Shown in pieces: positions 1-64,000 of a stretch of 64,000 nt of DNA. The notes beneath the pieces were generated by a model. The model was not told where the DNA came from. It saw nothing but the letters and a program-made list of their open reading frames with translations, and searched no databases. The stretch is from Raja brachyura (lineage: Eukaryota). Where the stretch lies: positions 37,014,001-37,078,000 of the forward strand of contig OY740792.1 in assembly GCA_963514005.1 (NCBI GenBank). The letters run 5' to 3'. Position 1 is the first letter of the stretch; every line of letters starts with the position of its first letter. The position numbers and the translations under genes are program-made.

Positions 1-320
1 AGCCTTTCATCATTCTTTACCCTGTTCCATCCCTATCGTCTTACTTTTAAAGTGGGCATTGTCTATTAATTTCATACATTCACCCAGATTTCTCCCCGGA
101 AAAGCCCCTCATTCTCTCCGATATCCGTTTTCGTTTTGTCTCATCTCTTCTGAATTCACTCCAATCTTGTGAATCAACCTACCATGAGGGACCTTATCAA
201 AAGCCTTACTCAAATTCATGTACACAAAATCCACCGCCCTACCTTCATCAATCTCTTTTGTCACTTCCACAAAAAACACAATCAAGTTAGTGAGACACGA
301 CCTTCCATGTATAGGGTGGA

Positions 321-1412: not shown

Positions 1413-2709
1413 CGGACTGCACGATTTATTTAACTAATACTGGTGAAGGAATCTACTGTGTCTTAACTCTATAGATTTATGGTAGGTCAGCTGCAGGACA
1501 TACAACATTCAGAAAAAGGTCTTACAACAGACTCAATACCCTTATTTACATCCTTTCATAAATAACAAGCTGCCAGAAGAGGTAGTTGAGGCTGAGACTA
1601 TCCCATCGTTTAGGTGGTACTAATGTAACTGGAACATTGTACTAGTGTGGGCAAATTGGGCCGAGGGGCCTGTTTCCACACTGTATCACTCCATGACTAT
1701 GATAAATATGATGTTGGCGGCCAAGTGGCGCAGTGAGTAGAGCTGCTGCCTCACAGCGGGTTTGAACCTGACCTCGGGTGCTATATATGTGCAGTTTGCA
1801 CATTGTCCCTCTGACCTCGCGGGAACAAGTACTCGATGGTCGGCATGGACTGGGTGGGCCGAACGGCCAGTTTCTATGCTGTATCCTTAGATCAATCAAT
1901 CAGTGAATCAATCAATGATCACGAAAGCTGCTCTGGACAAGTGTGGGGAAACAAAATCAAATGTGGTAATCAGCATCTTCCAGGGATGATGGTTTTAAGA
2001 GCATTTTAAAGCTCCAACCACCACAGGAAGGATGGCTGTGGACACAAAATTTAAAAAGGAAATGGTTTGTTAGCTTTCTTAGTTTCTCTTTGAAAAGCAA
2101 TTTAGATACAAACATCTCCAGATTCAGAGCCAGTGGCTCTCTCAGCTGTTATAAAGGCAACTGAACCAGCTAGAGAGCGGTCCTGATCTACCACCGACCA
2201 CATTGGAGACCTTCTGGCTATCTTTAATCGGACTTTACTAGATCTTGCATTTAATGTTACATGTTATTCCGCCTATCCTGTACCTGTACACTGAGGACGG
2301 CGTGATTGTAATCATATATAGTCTTTCTGCTGACTGGATTGCACGCAACAGAAAAGCGTTTCTATAACTTGGTACACACGACAATAATAAACAAAACTAA
2401 CTGTGGCGACTGCCTGTGGCCACTGTTACAATGGCAGTGACATGTAAGTTGGGTGAAATCACCGCTGTAGACAAAATGTGTAGGAAGGAACTGCAGATGC
2501 TGGTTTAGACTGAAGATAGACACAAAATGCTGGAGTAGCTCGGTGGGTCAGGCAGGAATACGTGTTTTTTTGGCTTAAGACCCTTCAACCGACCCTGATG
2601 ATGGTGATGAAGTCTGATGAAGGGTCTCGACCCGAAATGTCACCTATTTCTTTTCTCTGGAGATGCTGCCTGACCTACTGAGTTACTCCAGTATTTTGTT
2701 TCTATCACG

Positions 2710-3025
2710 GACAGCAGGGTGGCACAGCAGTAGAGTTGCTGCCTTACAACGCTTGAAGCGCCGGAGACCCAGGTTTGATCTCGACTACGCATGCTGTCTG
2801 TATGGAGTTTGTACGTTCTCCCTGTAAACGCATGGGTTTTCTCCGAGATCTTCGGTTTCCAGCCACACTCCAAAGACATACAGGTTTGTGGGTAAATTGG
2901 CTTGGTATAAATGTAAGTTGTCCCTAGTGCGTGCAGGGTAGTGTTAATGTGCGAGGATCGCTGGTCGGTGCAGACTCGGTGGGCCGAAGGGCCTGTTTCT
3001 GCGCTGTATCTCTGAACTAAACTGA
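2710..3025 (+). repeat. V-SINE (HE1-like)
   Basis: Same family. Confidence 0.85.
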
Positions 3026-4180: not shown

Positions 4181-5174
4181 CTAAAAGAGCAAAGGCAGGA
4201 GCCCAGAGGAGATTTGCTATCTTCTCTCTGATGGTCTCTTTTTTTTGGCAGAGGGGAGGACTGACCTTTCGGATGTCGAGACCATGCATCAGGCTGACAT
4301 TATCATTACCTCCCCCCTTCTCCCATAACAACTGTCGCCGGCCGCTGATTATGTTTCCATTTTGTCACGTTGAGAGGTCAAGGAATGAGGAGGGAATTCT
4401 TTGCGTGCGAGGGGGAGGGGTTTTATGATTGCACTGTTCTACTTTATATAGACTATCCTCTGGAGATCAAGCTGGAGGGTTCATTGTCGGATCAGCCACA
4501 CACTATCTGCCTGTCCTTTTTATTCACTGCTGCAAAACACACATGAAACTATGGAGTAAAAAATCTAATTGCACTCTTTTCCTGAGAATGCAGAAAATTA
4601 ATTTAATTCAATGCAATGATTTACAAAAGAAATATTACATATTTCAACTGTGTTTTTTTTAATCTTGTTCTTTAGTTTTTAGCTTTAGTTTTAGAGATAC
4701 ATCCATGGAAACAGGCCCTCTGGCCAACTGAGTCAATGGCCAATGTCCTATCCCCAGGATGACGGAAGTCAAATTCTCTTGCAGTGATCTGAAACAAGCA
4801 TTTCACTAGGATAGTTGTCGTCAGACAGCAGTCTGAAGAAGGGTCTCGACCCGAAACGTCGCCTATCTCCTTCGCTCCTTAGATGCTGCTGCACCAGCTG
4901 AGTTTCTCCAGCCGTTTGTGTAACCCTCGATTCTCCAGCATCTGCAGTTCCTGCTTCAAAACTAGTTGTCATCCCAGCTGCCTCTGAAGTGGTAGTTGCA
5001 AGAATGAAGGGATTGGAATTTAAAGTTTAATTTTAGAGATACACCATGGAAACAGACCCTTCTGCCACGCTAACCATTGATCACCCGTTCACACTCGTTC
5101 TATATTATCCCACTTTCTCATCCACACTCCACACACTAGGGGCAATTTACAGAGGCCAATTGACCTACAAACCC

Positions 5175-6239: not shown

Positions 6240-7320
6240 GTGTTTAAGAAGGAACTGCAGATGCTTGAAAATCGAAGGTAGACAAAAGTGCTGGAGAATC
6301 TCAGCGGGTGCAGCAGCAGCTATGGAGCGAAGGAAATAGGCAACGTTTCGGGCTGAAACCCTTCTTCTGACTAATGGAGGCTGGGGGGGGGGGGGGGGTG
6401 GGGGCGGGTGAGGAGAAGAAAGGAAAAAGGAGGAGGAGAGGAGGAGGAGCCCGAGGGCTGAGGGAGTGCTAGGAAGGGGAGGAGACAGCAAGGGCTAAAG
6501 AAATTGGGAGAATTCAATGTTCAGGCCACCGGGATGCAGACTGCCCAAGCGGAATATGAGGTGCTGTTCCTCCAATTTCCGGTGCTGCTCACTCTGCCCA
6601 TGGAGGAGGCCCAGGACAGAGGGGTCGGATACGGAATGGGAGGGGGAGTTGAAGTGCTGAGCCACCGGGAGGTCTAGTTTGTTGATGCGGACCGAGAGGA
6701 GGTGTTTGGCGAAACAATCGCCAAGCCTTCGCTTGGTCTCACTGATGTAGATCAGCTGACATCTAGAGCAGCGGCTGCAATAGATGAGGTTGGAAGAGAT
6801 GCAGGTGAACCTCTGTCGCATCTGGAATGACTGCTTGGGTCCTTGAATGGAGTCGAGGGGGTAGGTAAAGTGTAGCATCTCTTGCGGTTGCAAGGGAAAG
6901 TGCCAGGGGAGGGGGTGGTGCGGGAGGGAAGGGAAGAATTGACAAGGGAGTTACGGAGGGAGCGGTCTTTGCGGAAAGCAGACGGGGGGGGGGGGGGGGA
7001 GATGGGAAGATGTGGCAAGTGGTGGGGTCACATTGGAGGTGGCGAAACTGACGGAGGACTATTTGTTGTATGTGATGGCTAGTGGGGTGAAAGGTGAGGA
7101 CTAGGGGGACTCTGCCCTTGTTGCGAGTGGGGGGATGGGGAGAGAGAGCAGTGCTGCAGGGTATGGAGGAGACCCTGGTGCAAGCCTCATCTATAGTGGG
7201 GGAGGGGAACCCCCGTTCCCTGAAGAATGAGGACATTTCCGATGCCCTGGTGTGGAACACCTCATCCTGGGAACCTGATGTGACGTAGACGGAGGAATTG
7301 GGAGTAGGGGATGGAGCATC
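6240..7320 (-). mobile_element. Penelope-like element (Neptune-type) 3' fragment with terminal repeat
   Basis: Frameshifted RT C-terminus, Cys linker PCNRKRC and GIY-YIG (NLIYCSRCSRCQLIYISETKRRL), followed by the terminal unit. Confidence 0.9.
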
Positions 7321-15531: not shown

Positions 15532-18354
15532 GTAAACTTGGGTTTTTAAAGCTATATCAAATTAATATGCTGTAAAATTGCTTGTAATTTCTTATAGGAT
15601 TGGCACCATTTTCAATGCGAGCAATGTTGAGAATATAGAATTTTCTTTCGTTTCATGGACCATAGAACAATACAGCATAGGAATAGGCCCTTCGGCCATG
15701 TGTCCATGCCAAAAAGATGATGCTCACTCAAACTAATCCCTGTTATCTCCAGGTACTCCATATTCCTCCATTCCCTGCATATTCACATGTCTATCTAAAA
15801 GCTTCTGAACGTCACTGGCAGCAGGTTCTGGGCACATACCATTCAGCATTTAAAAAAACAAAAACATGTTCCACATATCTCTTTTAAACAATCTCCCAAA
15901 CAATATTGGAGTTGTGGCCTTTACTATTTGAAGTTTTCACGCTGGGTACTTCTATAAGGTCACCCCTCAGTTTCTACCCTCCAGAGAAAACAATTCAAGT
16001 TTGTCAAAGCTTAGAGCTAAAACAACCTAATCCAGGCATCATCCTGATCCTGAAGAAGGGTTTCGGCCCGATACATTGCCTCCATAGATGCTGTTGCACC
16101 CGCTGAGTTTTTGCAGTACTTTTGTCTACCATCATCCTGATAAACCTATTTTGCATCCTCTCCAAAGCCTGTACATCCTTGTGACTTCCTGAAGTCGTAT
16201 GACTTTTACTCATTATTAATCTTATTTCCTTTCTTAAATAAAGAAACAACATTGCCACACCGAGTCCTCCAGGGTCTCACCTATGGCTAGAGAGGATGCG
16301 AAGATCTTCATTGTGGCCCCTACAATCTCCTTTCTTGCGTCAATAACCTGGCATAGATTCCATCAGGCCCTGTGAACTATCAATTTTAATGCTTTTTAAG
16401 AGACCCAACACCACCTCTGCCTTGATCTCAAAATGCTCTTGCATTATTGGTATACCCTGCACTATCTTCTATGTCTACTGCTTAGTAAATACCGATGCAA
16501 AGTACACGTTTAGTACCTTACTTATATCCTCTGACTCCAAGCATATATTTTCTCTTGTATCCTTGAGTGGCCCTATCCTCTCCCAAGCTACCCTCTTGTT
16601 GGGGGGAGTGGCAAAATCTCTGGCAAGGTGTTTTGTGCTCCAACGCAAAAGTGTAGAAAGATGTAACGGAATATATAAAATACATAGTGGGGCCCGGTAT
16701 ACTTTGATTATTATTAAACCACAGAGATAAGCCTGGTATTGGGTTAACATTGGCACCTTGTTTATAAAAGTTGGACCTGCTGTGTATTTTGAAAATAGGA
16801 GAGCTAATCTAATGGGTATGCAATAACTACATTAAAACTTGCCATAATTAAGTTATTTTGCAGTTAAGCACACTGTACTGAATTTACTGAATATCGTTGA
16901 AGAATGTTACAGGATTACTTGAAAATCAAATCTATTGTTAGTTTAAACATTCTTGCTTTCAAAAAAAACGTTATAAATAAACCTGAGAGAAAGGTATTGA
17001 AACATCTATCCTAGACAAAGTTGCCTAATTCACCATTACCTAATTTAGTTCAGAATTTTTAGTCTACCTTTTTGGAATGTGGTTGCATTTGTGACCAGGT
17101 TACAACAGCAATGAGCTGGAGTATAAATTTATCTTCAGTCAGACACCGTCAATGCACAATACAGTAGTTTGCAAATCGTACTCATTTTCTATCAACATTA
17201 ACAAATGCTTCAACTTTCTGTCCCATTCTTGCCTGATGGTTTTTTCATATGGACTTGTTTCTGGCCCCATTTTCACCCCCCCCCCCCCGCCCCCATTTTG
17301 TCTTATTTCCTTTCTTCTTTTCTCGTTTACTTGATTGTGCTCAGGTTGTTGCTTCTTTGAATTCGCACCACTTGTTTCACCTAGGTGTACCCAAAATACA
17401 ATTCTTTGAGAACTTATCACAGTGATAAAATATTTTATTACATTCGATTTAAATACATTTCCAGTCATCTTTTAATCTGTTTTTCACTGATAACATTCTA
17501 AACAAAACTTAACTTGAATAGAACATTGCACAGAAATGTTTATATATTTCCAAATCTACATCCATCTGAGATGAAAAAAAATGCAGTATCATGACATCCA
17601 AAGCCTGTTTATTCAAAAAATCTTTGTCTGGATTTCCTAGTCGGATCTAATTTTTCTTGTGTCCCTTGGACTTCCTTTGTTCTTGAGGTGCAAAATTGAT
17701 TGTTCTCATCATAAAACCAAAAGGTATAAACAACATTTTTACTACACTATTTTATTACATTGTAGAGCCAAAGGTTTTGCATCAGATACTGGAAATCTGA
17801 AGTAAGCACAGCATTTTGGAAATAGGCAGCTGCTCAAGATGATCACTGGAGGGAGAAACATCACTAACTTTAGGTTGTGTCATCCTGATGAAAAGCCATT
17901 GCCTGAAATGTTAATTCTACTGCTCTCTCTACAGATGTTGCCTGACCCTCTTAATATTTCTAACATTTTGTAATTTTTGTTGTAGGTGTCCACATACTAT
18001 CTTTTGATTTATCTCTCCTCTCGATTTTGATGTTGGCATTCACTATGGGCTTTGGTCTTCAATGTAAAATTTCTTAGTTGAAGGAAAGATTGAGCTTGTC
18101 ACTAAAATAATTTAAGAAAATATTTTAATTTATGATTTTAAAAAAAAAACACGTTTTGAGGTAACTATCTAGCATTTTCTAGGCAATTGTGTATTGCTGT
18201 TGAAATTCCCGTGCTTGAGGAGTGCAAGGCTGATTTTTCAAACTGCTTAGATTTGAGGTTCTTGGTAAACTGGGTTGGTGAGGTGTGACAAGATTACTGA
18301 ATCCACTGTATACCTTGTTGCAGCTTACATTAACATGATAATTTGTTGTGTAAG

Positions 18355-29070: not shown

Positions 29071-31149
29071 TCTCTAGGCGTTCCTTGCCTTAGGAACTTT
29101 ACTTTACCTTAACCATAAGGTCACAGAGGGAAAATATACATTGATTTGTTTGATTTATTTACAAATTTCTATAGTGGATTGTGTAAACTTTTTCATCAAC
29201 TTAGATAACTAGGGCAATACCGTGACACAGCTTGTAGATCTGCAGCCTTCCAGCACCAGAGACCCATGTTCAATCCTGACCTTGGGTGCTGTCTGTGCAG
29301 AGTTTGCATGTTCTCCCCATGACCGCATTAGTTTCCTACCTCATCACAAGACATGCAGGTTTGTAGGCTAATTGGCCTCTGTACATTACCCCTTTGATAT
29401 GTGAAAACAGTGCATGATTTACACAGTTAATGGTACAACCCTGTAGATGTTATAGAACAGAAAGATCTAGGAGTACGTGCATAGCTCTCTAGAAGTGGCG
29501 AGTCAGGTGGACAGTAAGGTGAAGAAGGCGTTTGGAACGTTTGCAGTAATTGAGAAGCGTACTGAGTACAAATGCTGGGTCATTTAGATATGCAAGGAAT
29601 AGAGGGATATGTATTATGTGAAGTCAGATAAGAATTAGTCTTGACATATTATTTGGGATAGGCAAAGGGCCTGTTCCTGTACTATATTGTTCCATTCTAT
29701 AATGACACAACTGCACAAGTCATTGGTGAGACCACATTTGATATACTGTGTGCAGTTCTGGTTGCCCAGCTATATAAAAAATGTCATTAAGTTGGAAAGG
29801 GTGCAGAAAAGATTCACCACTACTGGTCGAGAGGTTGGATAGGCTGGGACTTTTTTAAATTTGAAACATGGGAGGTTGAGTGATGACTTTATTGAAAATC
29901 GTGAGAGGCATGGATAAAGTGAATGTTCAGTCATTTTCCTCAGGGTAAAGGATTGTAAAACATAAAAGGCATCTCAGAGGCAACGTTTTCACTCAGCGAA
30001 TGGACCAAGCTACCAGAAAAAGTTGTAGAAGCAGATCCAATTATGGCATGGATAGGAATGGATTAGACGGATATGGATGAAATGCAGGCTAAGTGGACTA
30101 GCCCAACTAGGTCGACATGGACAAATTGGGTTCCATGCTTGTTTCCATGCTTATAGCTCTATGAATGTATGACTATTAAACTACACCTCATTCAGAACTG
30201 CACGGTGAACACGCAAGCCAAGAAATTGGATTTTCCTTACTTTTTGGTGAGCTAGAGACAAGGCTGGTGACAGAAACCTAATGAAGTAAGTCTAATTATG
30301 TGCACAATCAATGAGCATGGTGTGATTGTCAATGTTATAGACTGCAATAAGGAAGAATTTATGCACCACAAGAAACACATAATTGTTATGACCTTTATCA
30401 CTTCCTTCACAGTCCTATCAACAGGACATGGACAAAAACCTAGACAAAAAACTGAAGTATTATTAAATAGACAAGAATTTTTGAGGCGAATGAGATCTGA
30501 GAGTGATTGGGGTTTGGATGAGCCTGCAGGGATGAATGAGATGGGTTTTCTTAAATGGCCACCACTGTGGCACAGCGGTAGAGCTGTGACCTTACTGAGA
30601 CCCGGGTTCAATCCTGACCGAATGTGTGGAGATTATACGTTCTCCCTGTGACTCGTGGGTTTCCTCTGGGCGCTCCGGTTTCCTCCCACATTCCAAAGAC
30701 ATGCAGCTTTGTACGGTAATAGCTTCTGTAAATTTCCTTAGTGTGTAGGATAGAGCTAGTGTATGGGGTGATCGCTGGTTGGCATGGGCTGAAGGACCAG
30801 CTTCCACGCTGGATAAACTGAAAAAGATAGGAATATTTGAGGCAATGGAGATGTGAGAAAGATTAAGGAAGAATGGACTTGGGCTGAGCCTGCAAGGACG
30901 CATGGGATGGTTGTTTTTTAATGAAGATGTTAATGATGGATTTAAAAGTTGGTGGTGTTTTGGCGATAGCAAACTGTAGATACTGGAATCTCGAGCAAAT
31001 AAGGTTTGATCTTTGTTGGTGACTGGGACTGGACGGGGTATTCAGTTATTCACAGTACTTGAAAAATGAGCTGCTAATGATGTATTGGCACAGGATTCGG
31101 GAGATGGTTCCCATAAATGTTGAATTCTTTAAGATGCTGGAAAAATCAA

Positions 31150-31315
31150 AGATAGACAAAAATGCTGGAGAAACTCAGCGGGTGAGGCAGCATCTATGGA
31201 GCGAAGGAATAGGTGACGTTTCGGGTCAAGACCCTTCATCAGTCTGAAGAAGGGTCTCGACCCGAAACGTCACCTATTCCTTCACCCGCTGAGTTTCTCC
31301 AGCATGTTTGTCTAC
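31150..31315. repeat. Head-to-head Penelope terminal-repeat unit (representative copy)
   Basis: Palindrome centred at 31243. Similar units at ~2475-2705, 3357-3545, 19278-19500, 42100-42280 and 62670-62820. Confidence 0.8.
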
Positions 31316-31859
31316 CTCCCATAATTGTTAAGCTCAGAGAGGTAAAAGAAATACCAATGAGAAACTAGAGGAGATGTGGTTCTAGGGCGAGGGCAAATTG
31401 CAGTGGGATTTGGATGCGTTAGCATTGACTCAAGTTGACTGCTAAGTATTGCGTTAAAGTCAATGTTTGGATATGTGCATTCATCTTTAAGGACAAACCA
31501 AGTCCTGAATTTCCCATGAAATATAATCGCTGACAAGAACAAAGAGGTACCCGGCGGGAGCATCAAGAACAAAGATGACCTGACGTGAGTCCGCTGTGAA
31601 CCAAGAGGTACCCGGTGGGCTGCCTGTGGCCATGTGCAGCGGCAGGCCTGGTTCGCTGCTGGAAGAAGATAACACTGTACTAAGAGGTTTTGAAACTTGA
31701 TCGGTGGCAGAAACGTGGGGACTCTTTGTGTACTGCGTAGGTGATGTCTGCTCCATAATTTAACCGAGTGCAGGCAAAAACAAAGAACGTCACTGTACTT
31801 AAATACATGTGACAATAAAGTATAATTGAATCATTGAACCTTGCAAAATCATATTATAC

Positions 31860-32079: not shown

Positions 32080-32387
32080 CTGTGAAATATAAAACAATGG
32101 ATTACTTGATAGCTTATTTAATGCAGAACTAATCTAGACAATTTGAACACTTTACTGCAGGTAGCTGCAATGCTAATCTAAGTGATCTATATTTATAGTA
32201 TCACAATTTAAACTATAGATACAGCGCTTGAACAGGCCCTTTGGCTCACCGAGTCCGCGCCAACAAGCTTCTTGGCAGGTTTTTCAAACATGTATTGCCA
32301 TTATCTTAAGAAATAAAGAGAGAAGAATGGAGTTCATGTGCAAATGATGTGGTAAGTAAATTCCTTGGTGCTCTATGTTTTTAAATA

Positions 32388-33533: not shown

Positions 33534-33589
33534 TTCTTTATTAAGAGATTTGGCTTTTGAAGACTTTATAAAAGTTGACTGATAGCTTA

Positions 33590-33950
33590 TGGAGAGAACA
33601 ATCTGCACATGTGCAGTTTAAGATTTTTAAAAAGTCGACTGACTGCCTGCACGCTGCTCTCCCGCACGTTGCTTACTCCGCACTCGCTCAACACACACTG
33701 CTCACTCCGCTCCTTCAGCTTTATTTTCCTGCCACCAGTGATTGACAGCGGGTGGCGGAAGGGGCAGTTTTTACGATTTTTAAACCATGGCTTTTGTACT
33801 ATTCCACCGATCGAAACAAAACTTGTTGCACTTGTAGCACAGGAGAATGGCGAGTAAGGTGGCGAGAAATCGTGTTGCGATCGGGTACCGTTTTTGCAAA
33901 ATGTAAAAACAACGCAAACCGGAAGAGGACAAGATGAGAGTTTTATATAC
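33590..33950 (-). mobile_element. Probable Helitron 5' fragment
   Basis: Minus-strand TATAAAACTCTCATCTTG resembles the 5' subterminal tataaaactctgatcttg at ~21791. Confidence 0.45.
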
Positions 33951-34590
33951 ATTATCAGCTCTGATTGGATACCTAGAACCACATCTCCTCTAGTTTCTCT
34001 GATTGGATACCATGCAAAACAAAGCTTTTCACTGTACCAACAAGTGACAGTAATAAATCTAAACCGAGATAGGGTAGATGTTCAGAACCCTTTTCTCAAG
34101 GTGGAAATGTCAAGCTAATGTAACCTAATTGAGTTACAGTTGTTAAAATGCAAGATCAAAAGAGATGGGAGTAACTTAATTTAATCTAGATAAATGTTCA
34201 CCAGCTACTATAATAGAGGTATTTCTGAGATTTATATACCAATCAATAATAGGGTACCACTCAATGATAATTTGCTTGATTTAAGCTAATTGGTTCCCAA
34301 TGAGCATTGGGATTTCTTTGTAACAGCTGGTAATTTAAAGGTTGAGAGTTTATTCAATCGGTTTAGATTTATTATCGTCATGTGTACCGAGGTGCTTTGA
34401 AAGGAAAAAAAAGAGGTAGTGTTAAGCAAAAATTGTCAATGGGGAGGGTCTCTGGTCTGTGTGGCAGACTGAGCTACATCTGCAACCCTGCAATTTCTTG
34501 CAATCTTGGGCAGAGCTGATGCCAAACCAAACTGTGATGCATCCCGTTTAATTGACAATGCGTGATAGACCCTCCAGGATAAAAGTGTAC

Positions 34591-34719
34591 CTGTGGGAGT
34601 CAACCATATCCTGACGAAATTGCTCACGCTCGTTGAGAAGGTCCTGAATGGCACTTTGGGTTTCTCTGACGTTACGCTGCAGTGACATCCTGGAATGGGA
34701 CAACTCATCGGCCATTACT
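34591..34719 (-). CDS. BLZF1: BLZF1 coding exon 4
   Basis: VMADELSHSRMSLQRNVRETQSAIQDLLNEREQFRQDM. 129 nt, phase 2/2. Confidence 0.93.
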
Positions 34720-34778
34720 CTGGTGAGTCAAAATAACATTTCACGATCAAAATAACACTTAATTCAGAAAATTACAGC

Positions 34779-36355
34779 ATAGAAACATAGAAAATAGGTG
34801 CAGGAGTAGGCCATTCGGCCCTTCGAGCCTGCACCGCCATTCAATGTGATCATGGCTGATCATCTAACTCAGTATCCCGTACCTGCCTTCTCTCCATACC
34901 CCCTGATCCCTTTAGCCACAAGTGCCACATCTAACGCCCTCTTAAATATAGCCAATGAACCGGCCTCAACTACCTTCTGTGGCAGAGAATTCCAGAGACT
35001 CACCACTCTCTGTGTAAAGAATGTTTTCCTCATTTTGGTCCTAAAGGAATTCCCCCTTATCCTTAGACTGTGACCCCTTGTTCTGGACTCCCCCAACATC
35101 GGGAACAATCTTCCAGCATCTAGCTTGTCCAACCCCTTAAGAATTTTGTAAGTTTCTATAAGATCCCCCCTCAATCTTCTAAATTCCAGCGAGTACAAGC
35201 CGAGTCTATCCAATCTTTCCTCATATGAAAGTCCTGACATCCCAGGAATCAGTCTGGTGAATCTTCTCTGTACCCCCTCTATGGCAAGGATGTCTTTCCT
35301 CAGATTTGGAGACCAAAACTGTGCGCAATACTCCAGGTGTGGCCTCACCAAAACCCTGTACAACTGCAGTAGAACCTCCCTGCTCCTATACTCAAATCCT
35401 TTCGCTATGAATGCTAACATACCATTTGCTTTCTTCACTGCCTGCTGCACCTGCATGCCTACTTTCAATGACTGGTGTACCATGACACCCAGGTCTCGTT
35501 GCATCTCCCCCTTTCCTAATCTGCCACCATTCAGATAATAGTCTACCCTCATGTTTTTGCCACCAATTTGCCTGCCATTCTGAAAAGGACCTGTTTACTC
35601 CTACCCTTTGCCTCCTGTCTGCTAGCCAGTTCTCTATCCACATCAATACCGTGTGCTTTAAGTTTGTATGCTAATCGCTTATGCGGGACCTTGTCGAAAG
35701 CCTTCTGAAAGTCTAGATATAACACATCCACTGGTTCTCCCTTATCCACTCTACTAGTTACATCCTCGAAAAATTCTATCAGATTTGTCAGACATGATTT
35801 ACCTTTCGTAAATCCATGCTGACTTTGTCCAATGATTTCACCACTTTCCAAATGCGCTGCTATCCCATCTTTAATAACTGACTCTAGCAGTTTCCCCACT
35901 ACCGATGTTAGACTAACTGGTCTGTAATTCCCCGCTTTCTCTCTCCCTCCTTTTTTAAAAAGTGGGGTTACATTAGCTACCCTCCAATCCTCAGGAACTA
36001 CTCCAGAATCCAAGGAATTTTGAAAAATTATCACTAATGCATCCACTATTTCTGTGGCTACCTCCTTGAGTACTCTGGGATGCAGACTATCTGGCCCTGG
36101 GGATTTATCGGCGTTCAATCCGTTCAATTTACCCAACACCACCTCCCGGCTAACCTGGATTTCACTCAGTTCCTCCATCTTATTTGACCCCCGTTCCACT
36201 GCTATTTCCGGCAGATTATTTATGTCTTCCTTAGTGAAGACAGAACCAAAGTAGTTATTCAATTGGTCTGCCATGTCCTTGTTCCCCATGATAAATTCAC
36301 CTGTTTCTGACTGCAAGGGACCAACATTTGTTTTAACTAGTCTCTTTCTCTTCAC
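34779..36355 (-). mobile_element. CR1 (HER1-like) LINE, 5'-truncated, with internal deletion of the RT core
   Basis: ORF2 motifs KSPGPD, NYRPVSLTS, YLDFQKAFDKVPH and RPHLEYC; (TATGTTTC)n tail. Confidence 0.93.
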
Positions 36356-36619
36356 ATACGTTTTTTTTAGTTAAAAGGTATTTAAGAAACAAGAACCAAT
36401 GGATACACTGTGGATCAACAGAGCCCGTGCTAAAAGTAAATTCCGATGCTTCAGTAGTGTCCGACAATAAAAATGAATGCCATTTTTTGAAAACTATTAA
36501 CAGAGATGTTAAAAAGATATACACTTCAAGCAGCATTACAACAAAAAAAAGCTATTTTATGAATTTACTTCAAGTTTATTACTGTGCAAAAATTATTTTG
36601 ACCATTAGAGAATGCCAGC

Positions 36620-36932
36620 TTTAGTTTTAGAGATAAGCATGGAAACAGGCCGTTTGGCCGATTGAATCCACGTTGACCATCGATCACCTTTTCGCACTAG
36701 TTCTATGATCCCACTTTCCCATCCAGTCCTACAGTCAGGGCAATTTATCGAGGACCAATTAACATACAAACCCGCATGTCTTTGGGATGTGGGAGGAAAG
36801 CAGAGCATCCTGAGGAAACTCATGCGGTCACAGGGAGAACGTGCAAACTCTCGCAGACAACAGCCGAGGTCAGGATCGAACCTGGGTCTCTGGCGCTGCG
36901 AGGCAGCGGCTCTAATAGTTGCGTCACCGCGC
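36620..36932 (-). repeat. V-SINE (HE1-like)
   Basis: Reverse-complement copy. Confidence 0.8.
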
Positions 36933-37234
36933 CATCATGTTTTTGGTGCATTTAGTTGAATTATCACAATGCTCTCATATACAGAATATACTGTACAGAT
37001 ATATGCCATTTGCTCCAACTGGTCCAAGCTGATACTTACACTCTCCATTATTTCCACTGAAATGCATCTGCGCTATTTACCCCAATACTTCATGTGCTCT
37101 CAGTGAAGAAGGTAATTTCATTTCATTTTAAATTTCATTTTAATTGAATTCCAATATCATTTTTGGATATCTGTGTTAATGATAATGGTTTTACTTTGGC
37201 TCTTCCCTAACTGTGAAAATACATTCTCTGCATC

Positions 37235-37568
37235 TGTTCCCGATGTTCGGGAGGTCCAGGACAAGGGGTCACAGCTTAAGGATAAGGGGGATATCCTTTA
37301 GGACCGAGATGAGAAGGACCTTTTTCACACAGAGTGTGGTGGGTCTCTGGAACTCTCTGCCACAGAGGGTAGTGGAGGCCAGTTCATTGGCTATATTTAA
37401 GAGGGAGTTAGATGTGGCCCTTGTGGCTAAGGGGATCAGAGGGTATGGAGAGAAGGTAGGTACGGGATGCTGAGTTGAATGATCAGCCATGATCATATTG
37501 AATGGCGTTGTAGGCTCGAAGGGCCGAATGGCTTACTCCTGCACCTAATTTCTATGTTTCTATGTTCT
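37235..37568 (+). mobile_element. CR1 LINE 3' end
   Basis: SRTRGHSLRIRG...WNSLPQ and a tatgtttc tail. Confidence 0.9.
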
Positions 37569-37809
37569 ATTATGAAACCTCTCAGCCCTCTTTGTTTAAG
37601 GAAATCAGGTTTCAACCCTTAGAATTCCAAGAAATATTTAAAAAAATCCTGGCATACAAGAAACATTCCTGGCCTGTTTGTTCTTACAAGTATGATACCA
37701 CCGTCCTGATGTCAAACTTTAATTATTTATTTGCAGTCTTTCTAATAATTTTATATCCTTACTTATAAAGTGGTAACTGTAGTGTTCCAATTATGGTCTA
37801 ATAATCCAC

Positions 37810-38890
37810 TTGTCCACTATAGTCCCACTGACTCTCACGGCTATCTGGACTACTCTTCCTCCCACCCTGCTTCCTGTAAAGACTCCATCCCCTATTCCCA
37901 ATTCCTCCGTCTACGCCGCAACTGCTCCCAGGATGAGGTGTTCCACACCAGGTCATCACAAATGTCCTCATTCTTCAGGGAACGGGGATTCCCCTCCCCC
38001 ACTATAGACGAGGCCTCCACCAGGGTCTCCTCCATACCCCGTAACACTGCCCTCTCTCCCCATCCCCCCCACTCGCAACAAGGGCAGAGTCCCCCTGGTC
38101 TTCACCTTTCACCCCACCAGCCGGCACATTCAACACATAGTCCTCCGCCAGTTTCGCCACCTCCAACGTAACCCTACATCTTTCCATCTCCCCCCCGTCT
38201 GCCTTCCGCAAAGACCGGTCGCTCCACAACTCCCTTGTCAATTCTTCCCATCCCTCCCGCTCCACCCCTTCCCCGGGCACTTTCCCTTGCAACCGCAAGA
38301 GATGCTACATTTGTCGCTTTACCTCCCCCCCTCCACTCCATTCAAGGACCCAAGCAGTCATTCCAGGTCCGACAGAGGTTCACCTGCACCTCCTCCAACC
38401 TCATCTATTACATCCGCTGCTCTAGATGCCAGCTGATCTATATCGGTGAGACCAAGCGGAGGCTTGGCGATCGTTTCGTCAAACACCTCTGCTTGATCTG
38501 TAATAACCAACCCGACCTCCCGGTGGTTCGGCACTTCAACTCCCCCTCCCATTCCTTATCCGACCTCTCTGTCCTGGGCCTCCTCCACGGCCAGAGTGAG
38601 CAACACCGCAAATTGGAGGAACAGCACCTCATATTCCGCTTGGGGAGTCTGTATCCTCTTGGCATGAACATCGAATTCTCTCAATTCTGTTAACCCTTGC
38701 TGTCTCCTCTCCTTGCTACCTCTCCCTCAGCCCTCTGGCTCCTCCTCCTCCTTTTTCCTTTCTTCCCCCTGCCTCCCCCCACTCCCCCCCCTCATCAGTC
38801 TGAAGAAGGGTTTTGGCCCGAAACGTTGCCTATCTCCTTCGCTCTATAGATGCTGCTGCACCTGCTGAGTTTTTCCAGCATTTTGTGTAA
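37810..38890 (+). mobile_element. Penelope-like element (Neptune-type) 3' fragment with terminal repeat
   Basis: IPYSQFLRLRRNCS and CTSSNLIYYIRCSRCQLIYIGETKRRLGDRF GIY-YIG; hammerhead-like motif at 38800. Confidence 0.92.
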
Positions 38891-40132
38891 ACCCATGGTC
38901 TAATAATAGTTTAGAATAACATAAAAACATAGAAAATAGGTGCAGGAGGGGGCCATTCGGCCCTTCGAGCCAGCACCACCATTCATTGTGATCATGGTTC
39001 ATCGTCCCCTATCAATAACCCGTGCCTGCCTTCTCCCCATATCCCTTGACTCCACTAGCCATAGAAACATAGAAACTAGCCATAGAAACATAGAACATGT
39101 TTTTTTCAATTTCATTCTTCAAGAAATAAACTGCAGTATTGGATTTGTCTTTAATCGCATAACACATTTGTGAGCCAGCGACACAGCTGGTATAGATGCT
39201 GTCTCCCAGCACCAGTTTCCATCTCGGGTGCTGTCTGTGTGAAGTTTGCATGTTCTCCCTGTGACCCCATGGTTTTCCACCGGGTGCTCCAGCTACCTCC
39301 CACATCCTAAAGACTTGTGGGTTTGTAGCTTAAATTGCCCTTTGTACATTGTCCCGAGTGTATCAGGGGTGGATGAGAAAGTTGGATAATATAGAATTAG
39401 TGTGAACGGGTGATCGATGATTGGTGTGAACTCGATGGGGCGAAGGGCCTGTTTCCACGTTATATTTCTAAACATTTATTTCAACTCTGAGATCCATTTG
39501 CTCCTCTATCTAAGTTAGTTTTTCATTTCCAAGTAATGTGGCTTGTAAAAACAAGAAACTGCAGATGCTGGTTTACAATAAAACTGAAGAAGGGTCCCGA
39601 ACTGAAACGCACCTATGTTCTGAAGAGATGCTGCCTGACCCACTGAGTTGCACAAACATTTTGTGTGTTTTTTTAAATGTGTGACCTCCTTATTTTTCTC
39701 CCTAATATCCAAGTTTAACTTTAATTTTTCTTTTTTAAGCCTGTTTATCTGCAAGTTTATTCATGTCCATTTGTATTCGCAGAATACTTCAGTGCTTTCT
39801 ATCCTACCCAATTATGTACTGACTACAAAATGCAAAAAAAATAATTATGATTCGTAAGAAAATTGTTAATATAAATTGTGAACAGAGTCACAGCAATTAG
39901 TTTTATGAAGGTGTATTTCCCACCTTCTGGAACCCAGCTCTGCCATTCTGGAAATTATTGTCCTTTAAATGATTGGGAATTATTTACTCGAAGACAAGCA
40001 GATATTTGTTGTGGAGACACAAGGAACAGCAGAAGCTGGAATATTGAGCAAAACACAAACTGCCGGGGGAACTCAGTGGAACAGGCAGCATCTGTGGAGG
40101 GAATAGATAGACAACGTTTTGGGTTAAACAAT

Positions 40133-40870
40133 AGACAATAGGTGCAGGAGTAGGCCATACAACCTTTCAAGCCAGCACCGCCATTTAATGTGATCATGGC
40201 TGATCATCCACAATCAGTACCCTGTTCCCGCCTTCTCCCCATATCCCCTGACTCTGCTATCTTCAAGAGCCCTATCTAGCTCTCTCTTGAAAGTTTCCAG
40301 AGAACCGGCCTCCACCGCCCGCTGGGGCAGAGAATTCCACACTCACAACTCTCTGTGTGAAAAAGTGTTTTTGCATCTCCGTTCTAAATGACCTACCCCT
40401 TATTCTTAAACTGTGGCCCCTGGTTCACTGCCTGCCATTCTGAAAGGGATCCGTTAATCCCTACTCTTTGTTTCCTGTCTACCAACCAATTTTCTATCCA
40501 TGTCAGCACCCTACCCCGAATACCATGTACCCTAATTTTGCCCACTAATCTCCTATGTGGGACCTTATCAAATGCTTTCTGCAAGTCCAGATACACTACA
40601 TCCACTGGCTCTCCCTTGTCCATTTTCCTAGTTACAACCTCAAAAAATTCCAGAAGATTAGCCAAGCATGATTTCCCCTTCTTTATCCATGCTGACTTGG
40701 ACCGATCCTGTTACTGCTATCCAAATGTGCTGCTATGTCATCTATTATGATTGACTCCAGCATCTTCCCCATCGCTGATGTCAGGCTAACTGGTCTATAA
40801 TTCCATTTTCTCTCTCCCGCCTTTCTTAAAAAGTGGGATAACAATAGCTACCCTCCAATTCACAGGAATT
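40133..40870 (-). mobile_element. CR1 LINE fragment with internal deletion
   Basis: NLLEFFE..YLDLQKAFDKVPH joined directly to the 3' end. Confidence 0.88.
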
Positions 40871-41229
40871 GATCCTGTTGGGACTCTTCTTCAGACAGAT
40901 GGAGTAGGGGAGAAATCTGGAAAAGAGAGGAGTGGGACAAAGCCTGGCTCCATTCCTCTCTTCCATATGCCCATCTCCCATCCCCGAGCCCTACATTTCC
41001 CTCACCCTGCTGTCCCGTACCACCCATATCCCTCCTTCCAGCTACATATTACGCTCCTCTTCTTTCCCAACCCAAAACACCAACGGTCCATTCCAACATA
41101 CAAAATGTTCAATATAAATTTACAGATAATGAAAACGTGGTTCAACAAACATCTAACAGTTTCGAAAGTGAGAATTTTCAATGAATAACAACTTCTCAAG
41201 TTGAGCAATTCTCACCAACAATAACCACA

Positions 41230-42035
41230 TAGGGGGCGCCGTCCTGTACGGGTATTGCTGCCCAGCCTGCAGCTGTCCTTTTTTCACATCTTTTTTTAAT
41301 TTTTAATTAGTTGAGTTTTTGTTTTTCGGAGCTCTAATCTTTTTTTATATGGGGGGTGTGAGGGGGGAAAGGGGGAATCTACTTTTCCGGGTCCCTACCT
41401 GGTCGGAGAGGCAGCTTTTCTCCGGGCTGCACCTTCGACCCGTCCTCGCGGCCTACCAGCGGGCCTGGAGCGCCGTTTCCTGAGGGGACCGCCCAGAACC
41501 TCGGCTTCGGCGCAGCGCTATCACGGAGCGGGCGATGCCTTGCCTGGGTCGCCGCGTTGGAGCTCCGGAATGCTGAGACCGCAGGTGAACATCACGGAGC
41601 TGCGGGACGGCCAGCTGCGGGCGGCAGCGCTGAACTTTGGCATTGGGACCTGGGATCTCTCAGCGAGATCGCCAGTGGTGGAGCTCCATCCGGCGCGACC
41701 GGTCGGCTTCGGAAACCACGGTCTCGAGTAAGGAAGCAGCTGCTCCAGGTGTCCCAAGCCGCCGTGAGGATTCTCCCGATGCCGGAGCACCATCATCCGG
41801 CGAGAATGGCCTGGAACATCGGGCCCCTAGTGGTGACTGCGGAAGCCTCAATAGGCCCGACTATGGGGGGGACATGGGGATGGGGACTGGACTTTGTCTT
41901 CCCTCACAGTGGGGGGATGTTTTTATGTTTATTGTTAAATTCTTAGTGTTGTGTCTTATCTTTATCTGTGTGCTACATGGCAAGTCAAATTTCACTACAC
42001 CAATTGGTGTATGTGACAATAAATGTCCTTTGTCC
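41230..42035 (+). mobile_element. Unclassified GC-rich interspersed repeat with a Rex1-like 3' tail
   Basis: CpG-rich body with no coherent ORF, ending aatttcac...atgtgacaataaa. Confidence 0.45.
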
Positions 42036-42942
42036 AAATTTTGGAAGCAGATGGTGCAGTTAGAACTGCAGTATACTCTCATTATAATGGTTAGGTCGGA
42101 AAGAACTGCAGAAGCTGGTTTAAATCGAAGGTAGCCACAAAATGCTAGAGTAACTTAGCGGGACAGGCAGCATCTCTAGAGAGAAGGTCTGAAGAAGGGT
42201 CTCGACCCCAAACGTCACCCATTCCTTCTCTCCAGAGATGCTGCCTGTCCTTCTGAGTTACTCCAGCATTTTGTGCCTAGCTTCTCATTATATATGGACC
42301 ATGTTGTCCAATATTGCTGATAGTCTGCTATAACTGAGTAAGGTAGTAAGATTGTATAGGTAGTGGCAACAAGCAACTGCAGTTGCTGGCTCATACACAA
42401 AAGGACACAAGTGCTCGAGTAACTCAGCAGGTCAGGCTTCACCTGTGCAGAACATGGATAGGCAACGTTTCGGGGTCGACCCTTCTTCAGTCTCTGGGTC
42501 CCAAACTGGGCCTGGAATCCAGGTGAGTTGACAGCCCCGGCTTGTTGGTGACCGGGGGAGAGGCGAGGATCGGCGGAGTTAATAGTCGCGGCTCAATGGT
42601 GGCTAGAGTGCAGGTGAGGGTCGACGGTGACTGTTGCGGCCTCGAGGCAGCCGAGGAAGCTGTGTGGGCTGGCGTTGGCAGCAGGCGGTCCGGCCTGGAA
42701 GCAGCAGGAGCAGGAGGTGGCGTGGGAAGCAGTCAGTAGGTCCGTTCACTATAACTGGAGTCCATTATAAATAGGTCCGTAAAAAGAGGGGTTATTGGAT
42801 AGAGTATTTTCAATGCCACTAATCAGGGATGAATTTCGAGGCATAGAAATAGAAGTTAGACGAGGAATTGGAAAGTGTGCAAGCAAAAGTACATTATCCG
42901 TTTTAGACAATTTTTGAAAAATCAATGCCATAGGTTACAAAC

Positions 42943-43142
42943 CTGCTTGCGAGGAATTTGCTGCGCCACACATCGCATTGTATGGTCATCCTCTCCAGCT
43001 GCTCAGAAAGTTGAGACAGGTTTTGACTCAAAGTCTCATTTTCTAGGATTAGGTGATTCTTTTCTCGAGCCATGCGCTCAAAGTGATACTGAAGATCATC
43101 ACCAACAGACGCCACGAGCAACTTCTTCAATTCGCGATTCAC
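42943..43142 (-). CDS. BLZF1: BLZF1 coding exon 3
   Basis: VNRELKKLLVASVGDDLQYHFERMAREKN...QCDVWRSKFLASR. 200 nt. Confidence 0.96.
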
Positions 43143-44056
43143 CTGGAAGACAAAAACTAAAATCCTTGCAGCTGCCCTATTTTCTTTATGCACCCGATAG
43201 ACCCGTATACTGTTCACCCCGCAATTTCATGGTTTCCAACCAATCTATTTCTTTCTTCTTATTTTCTAACCGAAATTCAGTTTTATAGAATCATAGTCAC
43301 GCAGCATAGAAACAGCCCCTTCGGCCCAACTTGCCCATGCTGGCAGAGATGTCCCCCTACACTAGTCCCGTCTGCCTGCATTTGTCCCATATCCCTCTAA
43401 ACCGTTCTTATCCATGTACCTGTCCAAATATATTTTAAATGATGTTATAGTACTTGCTTCAACTACCACCTCCAACACCTCATTCCATACACCCACCACC
43501 CTCTGTGTGAAAAGGTTGCCCCTCAGGATCCTATGAAAACTTTCCAACTCACCTGTGCCCTCTGGTTCTTGATTCCCCTGCTCTGGGTAAAACACTGTGC
43601 ATCTACCTATCTATTCCCCTCATCATTTTATACACATAGAGATCACCCCTCATCCCCCTGCTCCAAGGAATAAGTCACAGCCTGTCCAATCTCTCCCTGT
43701 AGCTCAGGCCCTCAAGCCCTGGCAACATCCTTGTTTTAGTTTAGTTTAGAGGTAGAGCATGGAAACAGGCCCTATAGCCCACCGAGTCCACGCCAACTGT
43801 TGATCACCCGACCACACTAGTTAAGAACATAGTCCTGTGATTACTTAGTTATGGATAGTTTAGTTTATAGATGCATCATGGGTGGCCCACTAGAACATTG
43901 TCTTTATCCTCCCTCCAAACCCCATTTCCATAATTACGACTGGACCTTCTGTACAGTTCTAGCTATTTTTAATTGGTAGGGGGAGATAAACAGGTTTGAG
44001 CGATAACAGATTTGTGCAAATCTAGGACCAGAACACAAGCTAAAATGTCATCTCAC

Positions 44057-44493
44057 CTCCGTTTGTACCCGGATTTGATTGGCAAGCCCTCCTTTATCCT
44101 GAAGGAGTTTTCTTTCTGAACACTGAGATTTTTCAAAGGCAGCTTTAAGTTCGGTCAACTCTCTCTTGAGTTCAATAGTATTTTCTAACTGATTTGACAA
44201 TTCACCTTTATTGGAATATGCAGGGTCAGTTAGCTTTATACTCTTTGCAGGAAGATCATGAATCACAGCAGCTTTGGGAACCATAATCCTAATGGCTTCT
44301 ACTTCAATTGCTTGGTTTGGCTGCATTTTTCCAAGTTGAAGAATGCCAGGCTTCGTGATAACTTGAGAAGAACTGGATGTTACATTAGTTCGTGCAGCAT
44401 GATGACCTTTTTTATTTTTTCCTGATGTATTTTCCACTGGTTTGGCTGGCACTTCAGTTTCCATTCCATCTCCAGGTCCTCGGATGAATCGTA
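44057..44493 (-). CDS. BLZF1: BLZF1 coding exon 2
   Basis: IRGPGDGMETE (tankyrase-binding motif)...PGILQLGK...VPKAAV..LLQDKGGLANQIRVQTE. 437 nt, phase 1/0. Confidence 0.95.
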
Positions 44494-61378: not shown

Positions 61379-64000
61379 TTTATGTGGAGTTCTATCAAGT
61401 AGCAAAAACACCCAACATGATTAAAATCAAGCCTTCCACAGTGTACACGGACCAGGTTAAGGGAATAACGTTTAGTGCAAGGTCAAGTATGATAAAAGAC
61501 ATTCCAAGGGCCTCCAATGAGGTAGATAGTAGGTCAGAACCGTTCTCTAGTTGTTGATAGCTTAGAGTTTGAAAATTGGAGTTTCTGAACTGACTGAAGA
61601 TTTCAGTAGATCGTTAACAAGAATAAGTTGCAAAACTCCTTTCACTCTTTCTCCTCTCCTTTTGCTGTAAAAACCTAATTTCTCTGCTGAACTCAACAGA
61701 GGGCAGGGTATGTCCTAACTGCATGAAGCTGTTCCTGTTTAGAGCATTTTCTACGAACAAAACACTTCAAGATTGTATACAAAATTATGAGAGGCATAGA
61801 TAGGGTAGACAATCACAATCTTTTTCCCAGGATGGAAAATTCAAATACTGAAGGTGAGAGGGGCAAAGTTTAAAGGAGATGTGAGGAGCAATTTTTAAAA
61901 AATGTACACAGAGGGTGGTGAGTGCTTGGAAGGCGCTGGTGCCAGGTGTGATGGTTGAAGCAGATTCATTAATGGCATTTGGAAGACTTTTGGTTAACCG
62001 TATAGATATGCAGGGAATGGAGAGATTAAGGGTATGTGCAGGTGGATAGGTGATGGTCTTGATATCATTTTGGCATGTTGTACTTGAATAGTATACTAGA
62101 GAATCGAACAAATGTATTAGCTTTAATGGCAGCCAGATTTTTTCTCTGTGGAGAAAAAATGCTTGCTGGATAGAAATAACTTAGAAAGGATTTCTTAAAA
62201 TTGAAGAACTATTTGATGAGTTAATCTACAAATTAGAAAAAAATCTCTTGTCAGTGAGCAAATAAGCATCAACATAATTGGCGGCGCAGTGGCACAGCGG
62301 TGGAGTTGCTGCCTTACTATGCCAGAGACCCAGGTTTGACCCTGACTATGTGTGCTGCCTGTATGGAGTTTGTACGTTCTCCCTGTGGTCGGGTGGGTTT
62401 CCCTCAGGTGCTGCACTTTCCTCCCACATCGCAAAGACGTGCATGTTTGTAGGTTAATTGGTGTTGTAAATTCTCCCTAGTGTGTAGGATAGAACCAGTG
62501 TAAGGGTGATTGTTGGTTGGAATAGTCTTGATGGGCCAAAGGGCCTGTTTCCCCAAAGTATCTCTATACCACGAATCACTCAGAGTGGTGGGTATATGGA
62601 ACAAGCTGCCAGAGGAGGTAGTTGAGGCAGGTACTATAATAACATTTAAAAGACACTTGGAAACCAGGGACGTTTCGGGTCATTTCTTCAGTTTGAAGAA
62701 GGGTCTCGACCCAAAATGTTGCCCATTCCTTCTCTCCAGAGATGCTGCCTGTCCCACTGAGTTGCTCCAGCATTTTGTGTCTACCTTCGATTTAAACCAG
62801 CATCTGCTGTTCTTTCCTGCACATAGGGTTTAGAGGGATATGGCCCAAATGCTGGCAAATGGGACTAGCTTATATGGGGCATCTTGGTTAACATGGACCA
62901 GTTGGGCCGAAGGGGTTGTTTCTGTGATATGATTCTGACTCTCTGACTCAATAATTATCTAGTTTCCAAAATAACTTGACAGTATTTTGGTATATTTCAC
63001 AGTGAAGGCCATAATTTATGTCACTGGATGGCAGCATTTACTCATTTTATTGGTAACGCAATTCCTCTCTCACTTTGCTAGACATCTTCTGTTTCCCTGA
63101 AGGTCATTTGAAAATGGTTGATTGCTAAAAAGTGCAGTATTTTTGATCGCTTGATGTTATGAGACTGGAATGAAAATATATAAAATTGAAAGTAGAGGCT
63201 GGTTTTGTAGAAAGCACTTTAACACAATTTATAGGTATTAAACTTTCTCCTTTGAGTAGTAAAAGGCAGTATGTGTTTTTATATTGAGATTTTATGACAT
63301 ATTGCAACATTGGAAGGGCTCTGCAATATAATTTAAGCCAAGATTTACTATCAAGTTTGTACAAAAGTGGAAAATTATTTGTGAACTACAATCTGGGTGT
63401 GAATTTCTTATTATTATTTCCTTTCTTGGATCTCCACGTTGCTTATACTTGGAGGCACTGGAGCCAGAACAGTGATATCCAAATGTGCATAACACATGCC
63501 TTTTATTATCACTTACAGTGTTCCATGTGTTGTCTGAAGACAGAGATGGCCACTTGTGCATAAACTGGCCTGCAGCACATGTTAGACTTGCTCTTCCCAA
63601 TTAAGGTATACTTGCTTGAGTCAATCTCAGATCAGAGAATATGACATTTGCTTTTGGTAGTTCTGCTTTAAATCAGAGACATACCTTTACGATGTTTCTT
63701 GCATTTGCTTTCCCGCAACACCTTCCCCGTAAATCTGGTGATTGGTTAGCTGCAATGGTGGATTTCCACACTAAAGGACTTTTGGTCATATTAATTGTGA
63801 ATGGTGCAAGAAATTGCAGTGGCTGATTGCCAAAAGATCATAGAGTTGTAGATTGCGAAAATGGTTGTCAAAAATAGCAGCAAAATCTTGATCGGTTGGA
63901 CAGGTGGTCTGAGGCATGGTTAGTGGAGTTTAACATTGAGAAGAGCGAGGTGTTGCATTTGAGAACTCAAACCAGGGTAGGACATGTACAGTGAATTGCA

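Follow-up and report, generated by a model that had tools for sequence, protein, structure and literature searches.

Minimal type-I hammerhead ribozymes (min-HHRs) are known from the terminal repeats (pLTRs) of Penelope-like elements (PLEs); fish elements of the Xena, Poseidon and Neptune groups are among those reported to carry them (Cervera and De la Pena 2014, PMC4209133). As described there, they combine the core boxes with an extra nucleotide, a G10.1-C11.1 pair and a palindromic 15.2-16.2 step, occur mostly as single dispersed copies and, as a set, display compensatory changes in helix II. Neptune-clade PLEs with an endonuclease (EN+) carry a single ORF with DKG and YIDD motifs, a CX2-5CxxC linker and, at the C terminus, the GIY-YIG domain; their copies show partial tandems, an inverted 5' copy, a 30-40-bp tail at only one end and target duplications (PMC8557442, PMC3846280). 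The CX2-5CxxC linker is named for Neptune, whereas a linker of Zn-finger-like type is given for both Neptune and Nematis (PMC8557442). For PAc, the Poseidon element of Anolis carolinensis, two adjacent internal reverse transcriptase (RT) starts define the tail in vitro, the two strands are each cut and extended, RNA serves as substrate mainly in unprocessed form and the hammerhead needs protein (Frangieh et al. 2024, PMC11167929).

The family described here was found in a window of 64,000 nucleotides of Raja brachyura DNA. With the published min-HHRs it shares the core boxes, the extra nucleotide before stem II, the G10.1-C11.1 pair, the palindromic 15.2-16.2 step, the pLTR position and the mostly single, dispersed copies. 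Its stems I and II measure 2 and 4 bp, whereas those of the S. mansoni motif have 4-5 and 7-8 bp; the D. virilis variant has a 2-bp helix I, as here. Unlike the published set, the skate family is one sequence family without helix II covariation, and its unit copies number about 1 million, whereas 2,000-9,000 motifs were counted per genome, by another method, in the published work (PMC4209133). The autonomous element agrees with Neptune-clade EN+ PLEs in all the ORF motifs and copy forms given above, but 95/130-nt stubs dominate and the ORF, of about 1,190 aa, has a long proline-rich N-terminal region, unlike the Neptune PLEs described (PMC8557442, PMC3846280). With PAc it shares two adjacent 3' ends one tail-length apart, a hammerhead near the ORF start and insertions apparently made from uncut RNA. 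On the other hand, the PAc ORF begins inside the hammerhead whereas the skate ATG lies about 165 nt past the core, and the PAc mechanism was shown in vitro whereas that of the skate element is deduced from genomic copies (PMC11167929).

The minimal hammerhead found here is of a known kind and, as far as our literature searches reach, new for its host. These searches, which covered papers outside Repbase, Dfam and preprint supplements, returned none on this family in sharks or skates, and the one of two supplementary files of PMC4209133 that was consulted has no shark or skate entry.

The Penelope-like element and its hammerhead motif

The window contains two 5'-truncated PLEs; the features of the first are given in order, followed by the second:

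37793..37805, + strand: left copy of the 13-bp target-site duplication, identical to 38895-38907
37806..38894, + strand: 5'-truncated, frameshifted PLE with the C-terminal part of the RT, Zn-finger linker, GIY-YIG domain, 3' UTR and pLTR, bounded by the target duplication
38172..38693, + strand: frame with a GIY-YIG endonuclease domain and LIYIG motif (Pfam GIY-YIG E=0.0014, below the curated cut-off)
38694..38796, + strand: pyrimidine-rich 3' UTR (two main types in autonomous subfamilies, about 105 and 240 nt)
38797..38799, + strand: AGT (+1..+3), 5' limit common to the short units by column conservation in 98 pure solo copies, putative transcript start in an Inr-like context, and 5' strand of the 2-bp stem I
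38800..38827, + strand: minimal type-I hammerhead core (CUGAAGA, bulged A, 4-bp stem II, GAAA, CG palindrome, UU), predicted to be cut after 38827
38828..38894, + strand: remainder of the short (about +95) pLTR form, without the 36-nt tail, as judged by the 3' ends of young copies
38895..38907, + strand: right copy of the target-site duplication, identical to the left copy
6244..7316, - strand: the other 5'-truncated PLE, with a tailed pLTR at its end and a core damaged by CAGA in place of CTGA; 7316-6279 shows 85% identity along 1047 nt

The original prediction had placed a hammerhead core behind the GIY-YIG stop, and it is indeed present, 106 nt past the TAA, with the letters CTGAAGA-A-GGGT-TTTG-GCCC-GAAA-CG-TT. 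Stem II is there as well, although it is better drawn as 4 bp with a 4-nt loop, and the extra nucleotide before it is present as an A bulge. We number the unit from the A of the AGT preceding the core (+1, window 38797), so that the core begins at +4 and the predicted cut falls at +31/+32. The motif is much too frequent to be due to chance. A loose core pattern matches 15 times in the window against 3.1 +/- 1.8 in 100 shuffles. A strict minimal-hammerhead descriptor matches 24 times in a 924-kb sample, every time within the PLE unit family and none in any other hammerhead family, while five shuffles gave 0, 1, 0, 1 and 1. The Rfam scan returned no hammerhead family match at E<=10, a null that is uninformative because the motif lacks helix III. 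Stem I has 0-3 bp in all 24 descriptor matches, with a mode of 2 bp (12 of them) and none above 3 bp. The G10.1-C11.1 pair is G-C in 148 of 209 copies, and the CG palindrome (15.2-16.2) is kept in the majority sequence of five of six clusters (K=6), having decayed in the oldest one.

Intact relatives of the window PLE exist in the genome, with frames of 1203-1204 aa; a search with the GIY-YIG frame gave 136,780 first-look candidates, 150 of which were scored. The window PLE is 88.8% identical over 979 nt (from 37813) to an intact-ORF copy at locus L185 and retains the DNA of the CX2-5CxxC linker at 38272-38320. The L185 protein is a single ORF with RT followed by GIY-YIG (RVT_1 E=2e-4, GIY-YIG E=0.0017, neither reaching its curated cut-off), a DKG motif at 598 and the CX2-5CxxC linker at 1059; it has 1,317 homologues, and those listed carry RT and in part GIY-YIG domains. 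Descriptor and protein motifs thus agree with the predicted minimal type-I hammerhead in the pLTR of a PLE with Neptune-type motifs. We regard the element as Neptune-type by its motifs rather than by placement in a tree, and Nematis shares the Zn-finger-like linker. Full-length copies run from the UTR through AGT, core and tail to the ATG. A hammerhead-bearing pLTR lies on both sides of the ORF at L062 and in a tandem array at L187 (C18:46.36 Mb), where at least four near-identical 3,965-bp units, frameshifted, follow each other. Partial tandems, the inverted 5' copy, a 30-40-bp tail at one end and target duplication are all seen in this family. Another PLE array, of about 4.27 kb period, lies on contig C890.

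As for the host setting, a minus-strand exon at 44051-44572 has golgin-45 (BLZF1) proteins of rays and sharks as nearest named relatives, and the gene can be followed in the window:

28500-44500, - strand: golgin-45 / BLZF1, five coding exons, by protein similarity

The PLE at 37806-38894 is antisense to BLZF1, in the intron between 34733 and 42909. The units were said to be embedded in host introns, and this holds for the eight of the 40 window copies that lie inside the BLZF1 coding span. The surroundings include a 347-aa open frame at 14506-15549 (+) that resembles a large host exon; neither Pfam nor Atlas gave it a name, and we presume it to be CCDC181, the usual neighbour of BLZF1. A broken Gypsy-like LTR retrotransposon occupies 55600-59200 (-), with matches to DUF7041, RNase H and, weakly, integrase. 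LINE reverse-transcriptase fragments (Pfam RVT_1) lie at 34869-36370 (-) and 60006-60467 (+), presumably CR1-like and L2/RTE-like. Long inverted repeats at 11246-11422 and 32902-32996, with only sub-threshold miRNA hairpin scores in Rfam, are probably MITE-like, and SINE-like repeats at 39180-39470 and 36640-36940 appear to resemble elasmobranch HE1 / V-SINE.

Short units: numbers, ends and pairs

A profile search finds 40 unit copies in the window, so that the great abundance claimed at the outset was if anything undercounted, and 354 more in 86 fixed-position 10-kb samples (reversed sequence, 0). This extrapolates to 1.1 million copies in the genome (bootstrap 0.95-1.28 million), the unit making up 33,481 of 860,000 bp of sampled DNA (3.9%). 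Extrapolated numbers are rough, since the exact 28-mer of the core, with 10 sample matches, extrapolates to 31,400 but is counted 50,946 times in the 2.7-Gb genome (reversed control, 0).

All ten places cited in the original prediction carry the unit, several of them damaged. The one at 6369 is not ORF-less and ends the second truncated PLE; the 2614 core reads GAAATGTC and has lost the CG palindrome; at 42490 stem II is one base short; and 31244 and minus-strand 31242 are both arms of one head-to-head insertion. The copies and pairs in the window that are referred to here are:

4830..4956, + strand: solo long unit of young age (+1..~+126), core intact, target duplication of 11 nt including one mismatch
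16050..16134, + strand: solo short unit, damaged core, 12-bp target duplication
42367..42493, - strand: solo long unit, damaged stem II (one base missing)
62690..62818, + strand: long unit, damaged core
31126..31322, both strands: head-to-head pair, long arm -, short arm +, palindrome centre 31243, target duplication 31109-31121 / 31317-31329 (13 bp, 1 mismatch)
2482..2723, both strands: head-to-head pair (2593-2482 minus, 2611-2723 plus), by unit profile
42100..42289, both strands: head-to-head pair, truncated long arm -, short arm +, by unit profile

An old unit at 7362-7434 is followed by a young fold-back piece at 7435-7523 (+63..97 inverted, +70..127), apparently inserted into it, with a flanking direct repeat.

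The core start is kept in 232 of the 394 copies of sample and window, of which 128 are solo, 73 in inverted pairs, 16 endonuclease-linked and 15 with partial UTR. Setting aside 30 solos that have either an upstream piece in common or a short arm in inverted orientation leaves 98 pure solos. Among these, upstream similarity ends abruptly, with nothing common beyond about -2 and background reached by -3, the edge itself being spread across -2..+4 (values of 0.59 for A, 0.66 for G, 0.71 for T and 0.87 for C). Of 51 young copies, 33 have no more than 5 nt of the element ahead of the CTGA. The 3' ends of these 51 are equally sharp: 29 fall at +93..98, 19 at +130..136 and three elsewhere, and the 36-nt gap between the two matches the known PLE tail. 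The short units are colinear with the autonomous 5' UTR, as +1..+95 or +1..+130. Target duplications of at least 10 nt flank 19 of 97 scorable pure solos against 1.3% of mismatched-pair controls; at least these are separate insertions and not recombination leftovers, in line with the discrete insertion events originally supposed. Starts inside the unit are found in 143 of 352 copies with a normal 3' end, and partly reflect alignment erosion and truncated inverted arms.

The young subfamily counts 29,497 exact copies, 8,618 with 11 exact upstream nucleotides and 596 that go on towards the ORF, these patterns differing in length and the upstream 11-mer being only the commonest UTR variant. When 209 copies were coarsely grouped into six sequence clusters, members linked to a UTR or endonuclease turned up in each; five have endonuclease-linked ones, and the oldest has none among 17 sampled.

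Perfect head-to-head junctions give 1,797 strand matches in the genome. Eighteen perfect-palindrome loci, mostly within a 10-18-nt target duplication, yielded 15 scorable and 14 distinct ones, and all 14 join a long and a short arm. Among 50 scorable pairs out of 77 in sample and window, 43 are long+short, five short+short and two long+long, an excess of the mixed class with p=1e-7 against independent arm choice. Variants common to both arms occur in 8 of 31 comparisons within pairs against 15 of 492 between loci, which shows that the arms of one pair come from the same source element. A common source would fit fold-back copying too, as proposed in PMC3846280.

Origin of the short units

We consider it probable that the short units are dead-end stubs, produced when RT primes at +95 or +130 and runs off the 5' end of the autonomous PLE RNA. 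The transcript would start at AGT (+1), three bases ahead of the core. Two internal priming sites, about +95 and +130, would be used, one per nicked strand, and each cDNA would extend to the RNA 5' end, giving one long and one short arm. The assignment of one site to each strand is drawn from the long+short arms together with the two RT starts and the both-strand extension described in PMC11167929. The template RNA would nearly always be uncut, any ribozyme activity being slow, dimeric or protein-assisted, and the genomic stubs would then decay neutrally. The roughly one million mostly decayed short insertions are likely, on this account, to be stubs from uncut PLE RNA, with no separate ribozyme-driven parasite.

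In favour of run-off, loci bearing the ORF start can have the same 5' limit as the stubs, 5 of 30 beginning at -3..+4. Several observations count against it. Only these 5 of 30 begin at +1, the limit is spread over several positions, many copies start inside the unit, the oldest cluster has no endonuclease-linked member in the sample, the long 5'-truncated copies that prime in the 3' pLTR without downstream ORF sequence are not accounted for, and the in vitro basis is a Poseidon-clade element, not a Neptune one. The fixed 5' end could alternatively mark an RT stall or a processing site. In four contig sets whose RNA status is mostly guessed, unit depth tracks genomic copy number, and we give these sets no weight for expression, start, cut or splicing.

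One form of this alternative, which we judge unlikely, makes the fixed end a hot spot at which RT terminates on a longer RNA, the stubs being extreme 5' truncations of 3' pLTR copies; RT would stop just past a folded or protein-bound hammerhead, or the -2..+7 palindrome would anneal and join the cDNA end. Truncation at the 5' end is general among PLE copies (PMC8557442), perfect palindromes are frequent at junctions, with the strand matches counted above, and identical 3' ends and target duplications are predicted by a hot spot too. The hammerhead, however, folds weakly (stem II pair probabilities <0.005 in the 176-nt leader, z=-0.5), the same limit is kept across subfamilies with different upstream UTRs, and the upstream half of the palindrome is absent from most solos.

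Somewhat more doubtful is a SINE-like non-autonomous family with its own internal promoter (an Inr at AGT and a DPE-like word near +25..+32) and priming signal. It would suit the majority of copies being solo or paired stubs, the internal Inr/DPE promoter of D. virilis Penelope (PMC2377424) and the finding that pLTRs sufficed for mobilisation in trans in rotifer (PMC3846280). A family living on its own is nevertheless hard to reconcile with UTR- or endonuclease-linked members in all six clusters, or with 98 pure solos that have captured no common flank. Moreover, the +95 stubs lack the tail, yet pairs hold one arm of each length; the anole enzyme requires RNA beyond the priming sites (PMC11167929); and the only multi-locus derivatives found retain -62..+244 or -61..+269.

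The original prediction went further and saw in the units an abundant, retrozyme-like family whose members cleave themselves, form circles and are put into the genome by the PLE enzyme. Metazoan non-LTR retrozymes have, like the units, a pLTR origin, a type-I hammerhead and no ORF (PMC7229834, bioRxiv 10.64898/2026.07.22.740005). The motif agrees with the minimal descriptor in print (PMC4209133), tandem mini-derivatives with one hammerhead in each unit do exist, though they are rare, and the preprint traces retrozymes back to pLTRs and records them from one chondrichthyan (bioRxiv 10.64898/2026.07.22.740005). The separate family itself did not hold up and now appears very improbable: the units are non-tandem 5' UTR pieces of 95-130 nt, solo or head-to-head, that include the whole core and do not run from cut to cut. 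Same-strand neighbours within 600 nt number 24, with about 21 expected for 280 copies, so there is no tandem excess. The ribozyme is minimal, its stem I of 2 bp standing against the 6-bp helix I and loop contacts of the canonical type; stem II does not covary and few copies are intact (see below). All six clusters are linked to the autonomous element, and no lineage separate from it is seen.

That the CAG preceding the core is the 3' splice site of a leader intron, splicing setting the boundary and rebuilding stem I as in D. virilis Penelope, whose intron ends at helix I (PMC4209133), is the least credible idea of all: a pyrimidine tract and CAG do stand ahead of the core in nearly all listed autonomous UTRs, but the 98 pure solos share no common upstream exon and a GT..AG joint ending there is absent among the joints listed (15 of 120; contig data).

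Besides these origins, unit positions +25..+32 (window 38821-38828), reading GAAA-CG-UH, would fall at the DPE position of Drosophila LINE/Penelope promoters if +1 is the start (RGACGTGY, PMC2377424). By this position, the hammerhead core may double as a promoter.

Hammerhead cleavage and tandem mini-derivatives

Whether or not the short units are run-off stubs, the activity of the minimal hammerhead is uncertain, as the original prediction had already cautioned on account of a stem I of about 2 bp. Core, stem II and palindrome are all intact in 21 of 209 copies. The two checks proposed with that prediction gave different answers. Stem II covariation is absent, the double changes (2, 3, 3, 2, 7) showing no excess over those expected (1.8, 2.1, 1.2, 1.0, 8.1), and a single family leaves little stem II variation to test. 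Core conservation does exceed that of hand-picked downstream columns (0.937 vs 0.919, p=0.019), but the excess is marginal and confounded; we rejected it as a sign of selection on the copies, because the core is A-rich and the copies were picked for an intact core start. In silico, six folds lend the hammerhead no support (z -0.66 to +0.59), and a dimer with stem II and a four-base stem III duplex reaches -12.7 against -19.7 kcal/mol for the best co-fold.

On the other hand, the catalytic boxes, CpGs included, stay the same in the majority sequences of five clusters out of six, the oldest showing CpG decay, and positions +32..+50 vary between clusters. This suggests constraint on the source elements, and a promoter role would do likewise. 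Within copies, the catalytic G at +24 is hit by CpG decay and kept at 0.62.

Traces of cutting were sought at the unit starts, of which 148 lie at +32 (the cut), 165 at +36 and 49 at +29; by these counts, cut templates make up about 1% of the young family. Clean starts at +32, +36 and +29 number 12 of 30, 3 of 15 and 6 of 15, respectively. Insertions at the scissile bond number 19, against 13 and 5 at two control bonds, where all are duplications of neighbouring bases; at the cut, only one class is clearly untemplated, an AAA found with different flanks at four loci:

L308, C3:975311
L311, C18:3252211
L312, C18:5744654
L326, C1334:456

These four possibly descend from one source copy. Starts preceded by an A-run number five at +32, one at +33 and one at +34 (p=0.045, post hoc, three of the five having suggested the test). 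The AAA is a weak hint, in the genomic sequence, of cutting in vivo. At L269:1132-1569 and L276:1464-2741, a sense piece of the PLE ORF is followed by an A/T-rich run and a unit from exactly +32, an arrangement that could arise by a template jump from a cut RNA end.

Two tandem mini-derivatives, each with one hammerhead per unit, were found in one match list. The first, of 311 bp (-62..+244), has four junctions at two loci; the second, of 328-330 bp (-61..+269), has seven junctions at three loci:

L219 / L241 (C1:162.94 Mb) and L239: 311-bp arrays, same deletion junction
L221 / L244 (C2:59.59 Mb), L243 and L246 (C22:20.18 Mb): 328-330-bp arrays, same deletion junction

Target duplications of 12 and 9 nt accompany two of the arrays. 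Both derivatives are internally deleted and retain promoter-side and post-tail sequence absent from the stubs. They fit the definition of at least two consecutive hammerhead units given in the preprint (bioRxiv 10.64898/2026.07.22.740005), and we propose them as candidate newborn retrozymes.

The literature already has PLE end repeats with minimal hammerheads, as well as the tail and inverted pLTRs, and the useful part of the present family is its scale and precision. The sharp ends of its units give in vivo numbers on PLE integration and on the role of the hammerhead, namely two 3' ends, one per arm, one common 5' end and a share of starts at the cut of about 1%. A second clade is thereby available for testing the internal-priming model of the anole element, and if retrozymes are born from pLTRs, as has been proposed, the rare tandem derivatives are direct candidates for that step. 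A bolder picture, possible but rather doubtful, is that the hammerhead forms the first 31 nt of the PLE RNA and cuts rarely in the animal, its scars being kept, and that the family has shed the 311- and 328/330-bp newborn retrozymes, which moved to several loci. If so, the near-identical insertions, present in tens of thousands, would make the genome a quantitative record of how Penelope elements prime, how they are cleaved and how retrozymes originate.
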